Shown here piece by piece: positions 5,795 to 8,638 of a DNA stretch of 24,000 bases; the stretch's first letter is position 1, and each line of letters begins with the position of its first letter. Source of the DNA: Nitrospirota bacterium. GTDB lineage: Bacteria; Nitrospirota; Thermodesulfovibrionia; Thermodesulfovibrionales; UBA6898. The position numbers were made by a program, and so were the translations under genes. The notes under the pieces are model-generated. The model was not told the origin of the DNA and searched no databases. It worked only from the letters and a program-made list of their open reading frames with translations. The DNA lies in the NCBI GenBank assembly GCA_016235245.1, contig JACRLO010000025.1, forward strand, positions 12,935 to 36,934. The letters run 5' to 3'.

Positions 5795-6091
5795 TCAGCA
5801 GCAATTGCCTGTTTTGTTCTCGCCGCTGCAGTCACATGAAGGCTCTCCTCCGCTTATTATGCTGTTGATGACAGCAGCAGCGCAGCCAACGCCCTTGTTA
5901 ACGGTCAGCGCACCGAAGGCACAATTGCCAACGCAGGCCCCGCATTCCATACACCGGTCCTTGTCCAGGATAACAGCCTTTTTGTTTTCGATGGCAAAGA
6001 CTCCATGCGGGCATACCTCGACGCAACTGCCGCAGCCAATACAGTGTTCCGGGAAAATTTCGAGGCTCACAGTATTTGAGAGATATTTCAT
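5795..6091 (-). CDS. hgcB: HgcB, 2x[4Fe-4S] ferredoxin of the mercury methylation pair
   Basis: Two CxxCxxCxxxCP-type clusters (CIGCGSCVEVCP and CMECGACVGNC). These include the HgcB-diagnostic C(M/I)ECGA motif, a conserved later Cys (GVGC) and a C-terminal CC (GNCC-stop). The gene lies immediately after hgcA. I place the start at the ATG at 6091: it forms an ATGA overlap with the hgcA stop and has GGAGGG 4 nt upstream. The ORF track's longer start at 6103 has its SD abutting the ATG. Confidence 0.87.
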   Translation of the reverse strand: MKYLSNTVSLEIFPEHCIGCGSCVEVCPHGVFAIENKKAVILDKDRCMECGACVGNCAFGALTVNKGVGCAAAVINSIISGGEPSCDCSGENKTGNCC

Positions 6092-7182
6092 AAGACCCTC
6101 CATTCTCCAAGCTTATAGATAAGCAGGAGAATTAGTGAGACCGCCACACCCGAAATATACAGGGGAATGCCGATCTTCAATTCCTTTTTAACGCCTGACA
6201 TTCCGGTAAACGTACTTGCTCCGGTAAACTGAAGAGCGATATAGGAACTCGCCAAAGGGAAAAACAGATACGCAGCAATGAGGAGGACCTTACTTAAATG
6301 TCCGAGCATTGAAATATACGTTGTGGACAAAAAGACTGCGAGTATTCCTGTTATCCAGCCCTTTACCGCAAATGATCTGAAAGGAATAAACGGAAGAAGA
6401 ACAGGAGTTACCAGCGCACCGGCAATTACGGATATGAGGCCAAGCAGGAGAAATGGCAAACCAGCAGAAATGGCATCCATGAAAAGAATGCCTCCTGGCT
6501 GAAGACCGAATATCGTGAGTATTATCAGGGCATACCATGGATAGTATTTTTTCATGGCAGGATTGATTTCCATTGGTGTAAGGATCAGTCTGTCGACGAG
6601 CGGGAACTTCACAGTCCTCATGTCCCTTGTCGCCTGATATCCCGCGGCGATATAAGCGCCGATATCTTCAGCACGCACTGGTCCGTAGCAGACCTTGAAC
6701 CCTGTGGCTTTTGTTGTCTTGTGGGCGCTGATCCCCGGAGCCCCGAGTTGGGGGACGATTATCCTCCTGTGATCGACCACCCTGTCCAGTCTTGTAACGG
6801 AGATTATTCTCACCAATTCATCAGTTCCAAACGTCCCTTTGCCGGCTGCGCACCATACATTTATGCCTTTTGTGTCCAGGACCAGGATCCAGACATTCAG
6901 CCCTTTCAATGCCTTCCTGAAGGCATCAAAGCTGAGTTTATAATTGGCGCTTACCAGAACGTCCGAGTTCTTATCCGGCACGCCGACAGCGTACAGTCCG
7001 GGATTAACGATATAGTTATTCCTGAATGCGCTGATCCTGCACTTCAGATGTTCCCAATAATCAACCCTGGTAAGGTCAGGCGATACGCTGTAAATAGCAC
7101 CTATTTCAGTCGTGATGGTCCCGGTTACCCATGCAGGGCGGTTCTTTTCGATATTCATCTTTATAAACTTCAGATCTGCCAT
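6088..7182 (-). CDS. hgcA: HgcA, corrinoid protein of the mercury methylation pair
   Basis: 364 aa. The N-terminal CFeSP-like corrinoid domain carries the diagnostic cap-helix motif GINVWCAAGKGTFGT. The Cys is residue 111, codon 6850-6852, verified as tgc on the minus strand. Flanking HgcA-typical blocks: PGLYAVG, VLVSANYKLSFDAFRKAL, WILVLDTKG, IVPQLGAPGISAH, GFKVCYGPVRAEDI. The C-terminal half has about 5 transmembrane helices, as in HgcA. Confidence 0.93.
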   Translation of the reverse strand: MADLKFIKMNIEKNRPAWVTGTITTEIGAIYSVSPDLTRVDYWEHLKCRISAFRNNYIVNPGLYAVGVPDKNSDVLVSANYKLSFDAFRKALKGLNVWILVLDTKGINVWCAAGKGTFGTDELVRIISVTRLDRVVDHRRIIVPQLGAPGISAHKTTKATGFKVCYGPVRAEDIGAYIAAGYQATRDMRTVKFPLVDRLILTPMEINPAMKKYYPWYALIILTIFGLQPGGILFMDAISAGLPFLLLGLISVIAGALVTPVLLPFIPFRSFAVKGWITGILAVFLSTTYISMLGHLSKVLLIAAYLFFPLASSYIALQFTGASTFTGMSGVKKELKIGIPLYISGVAVSLILLLIYKLGEWRVL

Positions 7183-8258
7183 TACAGGTCAAGACCTTTT
7201 ACACTGCAATATCCAATGGTGAAATATTTCTTTTGAAAATAGATCGCGACATTCACCAGCCCGATCAGAACCGGCACTTCGACCAGAGGACCAATTACCG
7301 CTGCAAATGCCGCACCAGAGTTAATTCCGAAGACGGCAACAGCAACCGCTATTGCAAGTTCAAAGTTATTACTCGCTGCAGTAAACGAGAGTGTAGCGGT
7401 CTTTGGGTAATCTGCCCCGATCTTTTTCCCAAGATAGAAAGAGACTAGGAACATCACCACAAAATAGATAAGGAGGGGAATTGCAATGCGTACGACATCC
7501 AGCGGCAGTCTGACAATATAGTTACCCTTGAGAGAGAACATCACGAGAATGGTGAAAAGCAGAAAGATGAGCGTAATAGGGCTTATTCTGGGTATAAAGA
7601 CCTTTTCATACCACTGCCGGCTCTTTACGTTAAGCAGAACGAAACGGGTAAGCATACCTGCCAGAAAGGGGATGCCAAGATAAATAAATACGCTCTCTGC
7701 AATCTGGACCATGGTTATATTTACGATCACGCCCTTCAGCCCAAGCCACGACGGCAGCACAGTGATGAAGATGTAGGCATAAACCGAGAAAAAGAGCACC
7801 TGGAAGATTGAGTTAAAGGCAACGAGTCCTGCTGCATACTCGGTATCCCCGCAGGCAAGGTCGTTCCATACGATAACCATCGCAATGCACCGGGCAAGGC
7901 CTATCATGATCAGGCCGACCATATATTCCGGGTACCCGGAGAGAAAAGCGATCGCCAGCAGAAACATCAGAACCGGACCTATAACCCAATTTTGGATCAG
8001 CGACAGCAGAAGGATCTTCTTATTTCTGAAGACTTCCCCCAGCTCCTCGTATTTAACTTTTGCCAATGGCGGATACATCATGAGAATGAGACCTATGGCA
8101 ATCGGTATATTCGTGGTGCCGACCTGAAACTGGTTGATGAACCCCTCAGTCCCTGGAATGAAATATCCAAGGCCGACACCAAGGGCCATTGCGCTAAATA
8201 TCCATAACGTAAGAAAGCGGTCAAGGAAAGAAAGTCTTTTGCCTGTTTTTTCCGTCAT
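7182..8258 (-). CDS. acr3: arsenite efflux transporter, ACR3 family
   Basis: ACR3 blocks: [92 protein letters not shown] (with the conserved Cys), [20 protein letters not shown]. The start is probably the ATG at 8258, which has GGGGA 6 nt upstream and sits 2 nt after the arsR stop. Alternatively it is the ATG at 8264, which forms an ATGA overlap with the arsR TGA. The ORF-track start at 8306 lies inside arsR and is unlikely. Confidence 0.92.
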
Positions 8259-8260
8259 CG

Positions 8261-8638
8261 TCATTCCCCACAGCATCTTTTTTTGTTTTGCATAGGAGCA
8301 ATGCACCCTTTCCCCGGCTTGCCGTCAATAAAATCATTAAGCCTGGCTTTGTCTCCGGACAACATCTCCTTTTCGATCTTCTCGGTGACCGAGAGTATGA
8401 GCATCCTCCTGAACATATCTTCCGGTTCGATTCTGTAATGGGTCCATTTCCCCTGTTTCCTGTCCTTTATCAGGCCTGCCTCTTTCATTACGTTCAGATG
8501 AAAGGAGACCTTCGGCTGGCTCATATCCAGGGCAGCGACAAGATCGCAGACGCAGAGTTCACCGGCTTCCAGAAGCTTGATGATCCTGAGCCTTGTCCCC
8601 TCGGAGAGGGCCTTGAATACCATGAGCAGATCTTCCAT
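8261..8638 (-). CDS. arsR: ArsR/SmtB-family metalloregulatory repressor
   Basis: 125 aa. Winged [62 protein letters not shown]. The ELCVCDL element is the classical As(III)-binding motif of R773-type ArsR. An additional C-terminal Cys cluster is present ([15 protein letters not shown]). Confidence 0.88.

Follow-up and report, generated by a model that had tools for sequence, protein, structure and literature searches.

The stretch of DNA analysed here (hereafter the window) comprises 24,000 nt of contig JACRLO010000025.1 (positions 12,935-36,934; assembly GCA_016235245.1) from a Nitrospirota bacterium of the UBA6898 lineage. It contains a chromosomal arsenic-resistance (ars) cluster of this uncultured organism, with hgcA and hgcB, a predicted mercury-methylation pair, at its far end. 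We propose, with a probability of roughly 60%, that these genes form an ars-hgc operon derepressed by arsenite, and that the junction at which the arsenite efflux gene acr3 runs directly into hgcA results from the loss of about 700 bp. Read from the sequence and from the list of open reading frames (ORFs), the gene order on the minus strand is arsP-arsE-arsR-acr3-hgcA-hgcB, with spacers of 12 nt between arsP and arsE and 6 nt between arsE and arsR, and of at most 12 nt throughout (Table 1). The compact unit is made of six genes starting at arsP, not of four.

Table 1. Features of the ars-hgc cluster and of its immediate 3' neighbour, in window coordinates
Feature	Position	Strand	Evidence or remark
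-35-like TTGACA box, candidate ars-hgc promoter	9877..9882	-	conserved in the window and 7 loci, 5' of the gene that opens the cluster
Imperfect inverted repeat ATATCAAC-TTAT-GTTTATAT, candidate ArsR operator	9853..9872	-	overlaps an A/T-rich -10-like box
arsP-family permease gene, first of the cluster	8897..9847	-	PF03773 ArsP_1, 275.7 bits
arsE-type thioredoxin-like protein gene (MTH895/ArsE family)	8645..8884	-	TIGR00412, 86.9 bits (cut-off 62)
arsR, ArsR/SmtB repressor	8261..8638	-	NF033788, 100.3 bits (cut-off 55)
arsR stop codon	TGA 8263-8261	-	read from the sequence
acr3, arsenite efflux permease	7182..8264 (alternative start ATG 8258)	-	TIGR00832, 461.2 bits (cut-off 282.8)
acr3/hgcA junction TAATG	7180..7184	-	acr3 TAA (7184-7182) and hgcA ATG (7182-7180) share A7182
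hgcA, corrinoid protein	6088..7182	-	NF040863, 394.4 bits (cut-off 275)
hgcB, 2x[4Fe-4S] ferredoxin	5795..6091	-	NF040864, 117.4 bits (cut-off 99)
CDF cation-efflux gene	4793..5707	-	TIGR01297, 258 bits; 87 nt 3' of hgcB

The arsR, acr3, hgcA and hgcB genes had already been named in an earlier interpretation made from the letters of the DNA (the sequence-only reading), and all four products exceed the curated NCBIfam cut-offs. Acr3 also matches PF01758 (SBF, 206 bits), shows about 10 hydrophobic segments by hydropathy and carries the motifs RCIAMV at 125 and NNFELA at 299, whose Cys and Glu, respectively, would be catalytic according to the literature. Residues 31-356 of HgcA match positions 2-322 of the 325 in the NF040863 profile, residues 58-176 match PF03599 (CdhD), and 4-5 hydrophobic segments (19-mers) lie in the C-terminal part, between residues 217 and 355. 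The cap helix NVWCAAGK (residues 108-115) is invariant from N108 to K115 in 17 aligned sequences and encloses the Cys at residue 111, exactly where it had been located before; judging by the published motif, this Cys111 would be equivalent to Cys93 of Pseudodesulfovibrio mercurii ND132 HgcA. A PDB search returned no solved HgcA structure, the nearest relatives being CFeSP large subunits only (E = 7e-9). HgcB contains two CX2CX2CX3C motifs (Cys17/20/23/27 and Cys47/50/53/57), Cys70 and the expected terminal CC, which is Cys97-Cys98.

The junction coordinates of the sequence-only reading proved correct, base for base, when the minus strand and the ORF list were read again. The acr3 gene starts either at ATG 8264-8262, which overlaps the arsR stop as ATGA, or at ATG 8258, 2 nt past that stop, and the hgcA TGA (6090-6088) overlaps the hgcB ATG (6091-6089), again as ATGA. 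The hgcA start is backed by the N-terminus MA(E/D)LKFIK, conserved across 16 homologues, and a mis-called start was rejected as the source of a length difference of about 30 residues, which corresponds to a variable Cys-rich insert. This insert (..ACCGP..C..C..) follows MAELKFIK in most close homologues and is absent from the window and from its relative L082, its site being HgcA residues 9-15 (window 7140-7182, minus strand; alignment A1 columns 15-50). For hgcB, the ATG at 6091 is preceded 5 nt upstream by a GGAGGG box (-9.8 kcal/mol against the anti-Shine-Dalgarno sequence) and opens a 98-aa product that covers the HgcB profile end to end; the alternative ATG at 6103 has a poorer Shine-Dalgarno (SD) match. 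From napA to a CMD/AhpD-like gene, the window carries a 14-gene same-strand array whose spacers measure between -11 and +87 nt and in which 5 of the 13 junctions are overlaps, so that three successive overlaps are ordinary for this genome and not above chance.

For comparison, HgcA loci were given L-numbers, 160 of them coming from two collection scans and 9 from exact-protein look-ups. The closest HgcA sequences belong to Nitrospirota metagenome-assembled genomes (MAGs), at 76-82% identity, and in 8/8 close relatives sampled on long contigs hgcAB lie downstream of acr3, on the same strand and inside an ars cluster. The fullest comparison is with L082 (MAG GCA_016217675.1), which shares with L169 the order nap-arsP-arsE-arsR-acr3-trx-small ORF-hgcAB-dsbD, trx being a thioredoxin gene. 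The other close layouts are nap-arsP-arsE-arsR-acr3-small ORF-hgcAB (L168), arsP-arsE-arsR-acr3-metallophosphoesterase-hgcAB (L167), arsP stub-arsR-acr3-trx-hgcAB(-dsbD) (L083 and L084), arsP-arsE-arsC-acr3-trx-small ORF-hgcAB-dsbD (L085) and arsC-acr3-arsD-arsA-trx-small ORF-hgcAB-dsbD (L170). Among more distant Nitrospirota we found arsR-arsC-acr3-hgcAB (L087), arsR-phosphoesterase-acr3-hgcAB (L097, L099 and L100) and a partial contig with acr3 directly before hgcA (L112); the gaps between acr3 and hgcA in these five loci are about 34 to 268 nt. The sequence-only reading had described hgcAB as the distal half of an ArsR-controlled operon beginning at arsR. Their distal placement is upheld by the synteny (8/8) and by the single 5' element described below, whereas the operon itself begins two genes further upstream, at arsP.

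Among the roughly 170 loci examined, the overlap of acr3 with hgcA occurs only in the window and in the identical contig L001. The window is colinear with L082 (DNA identity 82.5% from nap to acr3, 80.8% over hgcAB and 77.6% over the ECF-CMD region) except that it lacks L082 positions 6293-6995, about 700 bp with trx, a 57-aa ORF and a spacer, and also the dsbD gene. Relatives have in this stretch of about 700 bp the SD box belonging to hgcA itself, the thioredoxin gene and either one or two small ORFs rich in Cys. The spacer preceding hgcA is conserved among them and encodes an ORF of about 46 aa; in L083, L085, L129, L167 and L169 the stop codon TAA of this ORF and the start codon of hgcA together make up TAATG. 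The window Acr3 matches its relatives up to residue 357 and then continues as ..VKGLDL* into the same TAA, where L082 ends in ..VKGTSAL*; the last three acr3 codons and the TAA are non-native by comparison with the relatives. Since TAATG closes a small upstream ORF in those loci, it is ancestral to hgcA, and the deletion brought acr3 into it. In a neighbour-joining tree of HgcA (no bootstrap) the window is nested among loci carrying trx and dsbD, and the trx-less loci are not monophyletic; given this nesting, the direct acr3/hgcA junction is derived. The codon-level weld is thus the product of a lineage-specific deletion and not a conserved design. An AAGG microhomology between the end of acr3 and the hgcA SD box may plausibly have mediated this deletion, although the sequence divergence is too high for a demonstration. 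The adjacency of hgcB and the CDF gene likewise looks like a loss because in L169 dsbD is followed by CDF. The tight weld on which the sequence-only reading had insisted is therefore a real overlap, and yet a genome-specific one, left by the loss of about 700 bp that the relatives retain.

Both small ORFs are deleted in the window. They lie 5' of hgcA in L082 (6691-6864 and 6866-7012), L085, L129, L167, L169 and L170. The first encodes 53-57 aa with a CxC...CxC pattern, its 57-aa form having a sub-threshold Pfam match to a BFD-like [2Fe-2S] domain (E = 0.0018); the second, of about 46 aa and left uncalled (MPRRCPPCRGQG...IIKETR*), has no match in Pfam. In relatives hgcAB are moreover bracketed by trx upstream (129 aa, with an N-terminal hydrophobic segment) and by a DsbD_TM/CcdA gene downstream (229 aa), at 6305-6694 and 8390-9079 in L082. 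Both genes are present in L082, L083, L085, L169 and L170 and both are absent from L087, L167, L168 and the window, which has no dsbD at 5708-5794 and no trx at 7180-7184. In other lineages trx-dsbD (L137, L093) or dsbD alone (L163, L165) directly precede hgcA. This bracketing, of which we found no mention in the literature searched, suggests a thiol-redox relay associated with HgcAB.

At -3.4 kcal/mol and a spacing of 12 nt, hgcA has in the window a weak SD match, the weakest of the cluster except for that of arsP, compared with -11.4 in L082, -13.1 in L085 and -10.8 in L087. Overlapping stop and start codons together with a weak ribosome-binding site of its own, the sequence criteria for translational coupling, are thus both found at the acr3-hgcA pair, and hgcA is likely translated by termination-reinitiation from acr3, a coupling that would replace the one to the small ORF. 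Gene pairs generally known to be coupled through ATGA or TAATG resemble this one in sharing 1 or 4 nt, in the weak downstream SD and in the termination-reinitiation expected of them; the overlap as such is nothing unusual, and the window differs in that its overlap is secondary, acquired via deletion. The layout of the unit makes co-transcription and translational coupling plausible. The stoichiometric co-expression with Acr3 that had been deduced from the overlap is not implied, since an overlap suggests coupling and fixes no stoichiometry.

The regulator of the cluster scores 91.2 against the specific model PRK10141, just below the cut-off of 97, and is 60% identical (BLASTP) to E. coli K-12 ArsR over 70 aa of the DNA-binding core. 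Its alpha-3 site ELCVCD places Cys29 and Cys31 in alignment with Cys32 and Cys34 of the E. coli protein, Cys37 being replaced by Val. Cys32 and Cys34 suffice for the As(III) site in ArsR of the E. coli/R773 type, and the window ArsR keeps this canonical As(III)-binding pair. The protein also carries a C-terminal Cys cluster (C112, C122 and C123, within residues 112-125; window 8261-8305, minus strand), whose KRCC is conserved in relatives and which could be a second metalloid site, as in other ArsR classes.

Upstream of arsP, the 9853-9882 element is the only conserved promoter/operator candidate that we found. In L082, L083, L085, L087, L167, L168 and L169, where the genes further upstream differ, the 5' edge of the cluster carries the same motif with no more than 2 mismatches; in L082 the two 12-nt arms of the inverted repeat match perfectly around a spacer of 4 nt. 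The 16-nt core of the repeat occurs only once in the window. We infer that ArsR binds the repeat at 9853-9872. No sigma-70-like match was found within 300 nt upstream of hgcA, promoter-like matches being at chance level (9 found, 9.0 expected), and a terminator scan detected no terminator-like site at any junction. A scan at the Rfam gathering thresholds, applied to the window and four relatives, revealed neither a riboswitch nor any other RNA family within the cluster; its sole match was a group II intron in the relative contig L097 (D1-D4-6 domain, RF02005, 122 bits; 655-877, minus strand), just 5' of arsR-acr3-hgcAB. About 5 nt separate the end of the -10-like box from the arsP ATG, as they do in L082, L083, L168 and L169, and arsP has no SD match (+0.6 kcal/mol against the anti-SD sequence); L085, L087 and L167 have a short leader with an SD box ahead of the first cluster gene. 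Judging from this spacing, arsP may be translated from a leaderless mRNA. The permease shares 90% identity with its L082 homologue.

A second operator candidate, the palindrome CATAAA-N6-TTTATG found 5' of arsR in L083, L087, L097, L099 and L100, was rejected, as it is the coding sequence for SHKKEFIG in an N-terminal stub of ArsP. These five loci retain only this stub of arsP (4867-5109 in L083), fused to the last arsE codons and still following the conserved promoter/operator. Clusters of this family evidently undergo internal deletion often.

In the mechanism that we propose, ArsR would bind the inverted repeat overlapping the -10 region 5' of arsP, and As(III) would release it from the DNA. 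A single transcript would then run from arsP through hgcB, making hgcAB arsenite-inducible along with the efflux genes. Ribosomes ending acr3 would re-initiate at the overlapping ATG to translate hgcA, and hgcB would be translated through its ATGA overlap plus its own strong SD box. The layout argues for a co-regulation of mercury-methylation capacity with arsenic detoxification, and says nothing on the native role of HgcAB.

Several observations weigh against an arsenite-inducible operon. The arsR gene stands in the middle of the unit and not first, which is unusual among ars operons though not unknown, and the repeat in the window is imperfect (7/8 in the core arms, 9/12 in the extended arms). 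An internal promoter inside acr3 or arsR may have escaped the consensus scan. The hgcA SD is also weak in L169, L170, L083 and L100, several relatives with hgcA overlapping the small upstream ORF being as weak as the window, so that SD weakness does not point specifically to coupling with acr3. Field data tie arsR-like genes to lower hgcA expression and not to arsenic induction (PMC11984097). Finally, the interval between acr3 and hgcA and the gene content after hgcB vary among relatives, which a loose metal-resistance neighbourhood fits equally well.

This last point leads to the alternative that the adjacency is meaningless: hgcAB would sit in a variable neighbourhood of metal-resistance genes (ars, CDF, ECF sigma, thiol-redox), would be expressed mainly from their own internal or constitutive promoter in the 3' part of acr3, and the overlap would be a mere deletion scar. 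Such a view draws on the differing genes that separate acr3 from hgcA or follow hgcB (trx, small ORFs, metallophosphoesterase, dsbD, CDF), on losses that are not monophyletic on the tree, and on the wider sample, in which acr3 is found across phyla equally often on the upstream side and downstream of hgcB and ars genes are missing from the vicinity of most HgcA loci; PMC11984097 adds that hgcAB were long considered constitutively expressed. We nevertheless judge it unlikely, because acr3 precedes hgcA throughout the sampled close clade and again in a second clade of Nitrospirota, the cluster has its only conserved promoter/operator-like element at the 5' edge, the 300 nt upstream of hgcA contain neither a promoter-like match nor any intergenic space for one, and the hgcA SD is weak in the window.

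The frequencies behind this comparison come from a species-representative survey (80 loci kept out of at least 596 stretches encoding HgcA) and from a metagenome set of 80 loci, biased to close relatives. The sequence-only reading had suggested looking in the neighbourhoods of other hgcA genes for acr3 immediately upstream; acr3 precedes hgcAB in the close Nitrospirota, but among species representatives the direct arrangement was seen in 0/72 evaluable loci, and a wide occurrence of the weld is thereby rejected. An ArsR-like gene directly precedes hgcA in 15 species-representative loci, mostly of Spirochaetota, Fibrobacterota and Bacillota, and acr3 lies just downstream of hgcB in 2/66. In the metagenome loci, acr3 was directly upstream of hgcA in 4/39 and just downstream of hgcB in 5/43. 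The ATGA overlap of hgcA with hgcB, by comparison, is the norm (70 of 92 evaluable loci).

A different interpretation, which we consider improbable, makes HgcAB a working part of arsenic metabolism and more than a co-regulated passenger, for example in a corrinoid-dependent methylation of As(III) followed by export through the ArsP-type permease of the unit, with mercury methylation as a side reaction. It would account for the embedding of hgcAB among a canonical As(III)-type ArsR, Acr3 and the ArsP/ArsE pair, the latter described as homologous to organoarsenical-resistance proteins (bioRxiv 10.1101/2022.10.17.512643), for the clade-wide synteny, and for the annotated ORFs in the 24-kb window, where no arsM-type methyltransferase was found. 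The ND132 data in the same preprint also hint that hgcAB are linked to arsenic transformation or As(V) tolerance. However, most HgcA loci across phyla have no ars neighbours, an arsM gene could sit elsewhere in the genome, and co-regulation alone accounts for the layout. In a broader form, which we regard as very doubtful, the hgcAB of this Nitrospirota clade would be a fixed distal module of an As(III)-sensing ars operon with arsenic handling as its native function (e.g. as an As(III) methylase) and mercury methylation as a side reaction, the unit being completed in most members by a periplasmic thioredoxin alongside, DsbD_TM and the small Cys-rich ORFs.

An assembly or binning chimera at the acr3/hgcA junction, which its uniqueness among some 170 loci might suggest, has a negligible probability: an independently assembled Logan contig (L001, SRR12113394, 2129 bp) is 100% identical across acr3, hgcA and hgcB into the next gene, so that the junction does not depend on a single assembly, both flanks are colinear with L082 and both reading frames are intact. 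In the exact-protein look-up, the window HgcA was present on one 2-kb contig only.

The association of ars genes with hgcAB, stressed in the sequence-only reading, had already been published between 2020 and 2025. In McDaniel 2020, hgcAB regions have acr3, arsC, arsM and arsR as immediate flanks (PMC7438021, Fig. 6), and Zhang 2023 (PMC10349881) and Peterson 2025 (PMC11984097) report ars-flanked hgcAB again, the latter with metatranscriptomes. The control that a regulator resembling ArsR exerts over hgcAB in ND132, which the sequence-only reading had mentioned, is also in print: Gionfriddo (bioRxiv 10.1101/2022.10.17.512643) describes it, reports that arsenic raises hgcAB expression, and discusses a link with arsenic resistance. 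The current picture is therefore unchanged, the ars-hgc association and ArsR control being published and the overlap being a local deletion scar, and the locus adds a new example to the known type of ars-flanked hgcAB. The text portions considered of these four sources, as far as they treat ars-flanked hgcAB, contain no mention of a 1-nt acr3/hgcA overlap, of a canonical ArsR combined with a distal operator-like repeat, or of a clade-wide Nitrospirota layout arsP-arsE-arsR-acr3-(trx)-hgcAB-(dsbD).

Like arsR2-hgcAB of ND132 (Goni-Urriza 2020; Gionfriddo 2022/2023), the window has a regulator of the ArsR/SmtB family upstream of hgcAB on the same strand. Experiments in ND132 established co-transcription, regulation by the ArsR and a response to As(III)/As(V). 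The ND132 locus has no other ars gene, and the four-Cys site of its ArsR2 is atypical, this regulator responding to S-adenosylhomocysteine as well; the window, by contrast, has a regulator with the E. coli-type ELCVCD site, acr3 between it and hgcA, arsP-arsE ahead, and a candidate operator about 2.7 kb upstream of hgcA. The ars-flanked hgcAB loci of the MAG surveys are similar in that ars genes adjoin hgcAB in diverse uncultured methylators; in the portions considered, those surveys describe neighbourhoods and not junction geometry, promoters or regulator type. With canonical arsR-acr3(-arsC) operons (E. coli arsRBC for the regulator) the window shares a CVC-site ArsR, an Acr3 permease and an inverted repeat overlapping the promoter, but its arsR is third and not first, and the unit is prolonged by two further genes, for a corrinoid methyltransferase and a ferredoxin, a pair not known to act in arsenic resistance.

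What HgcAB do natively, and how they are regulated, matters for any prediction of methylmercury production. The window offers a clean natural case, in which hgcAB lie without intergenic space behind a regulator with a textbook As(III) site, unlike the atypical ArsR2 of ND132. This arrangement yields a sharp prediction, namely that arsenite would switch on the mercury-methylation genes. The relatives, some of which have trx, dsbD and the small ORFs while others lack them, form a family of natural variants for comparison.

At the 3' side of the unit, the CDF gene holds the slot where relatives have DsbD_TM and is possibly a unit separate from hgcAB. The spacer between hgcB and CDF shows no significant structure and no terminator-like fold (folding z = 0.22), and it contains a weak promoter-like match at 5756..5729, upstream of CDF. 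More widely, the neighbourhood is that of a core chromosome (a ribosomal-protein/rpoA/secY cluster, nrfA, napAGHBD and selAB), and the G+C content is even throughout the window. The ECF sigma and CMD pair located 3' of hgcAB is also found in L082 and L168, L167 having ECF sigma alone with no CMD on record. Finally, selA (97-1344) and selB (1797-3680) adjoin the gene of the small CMD/AhpD-like CxxC protein (4101..3844), which has weak matches to selenoprotein-type AhpD families.

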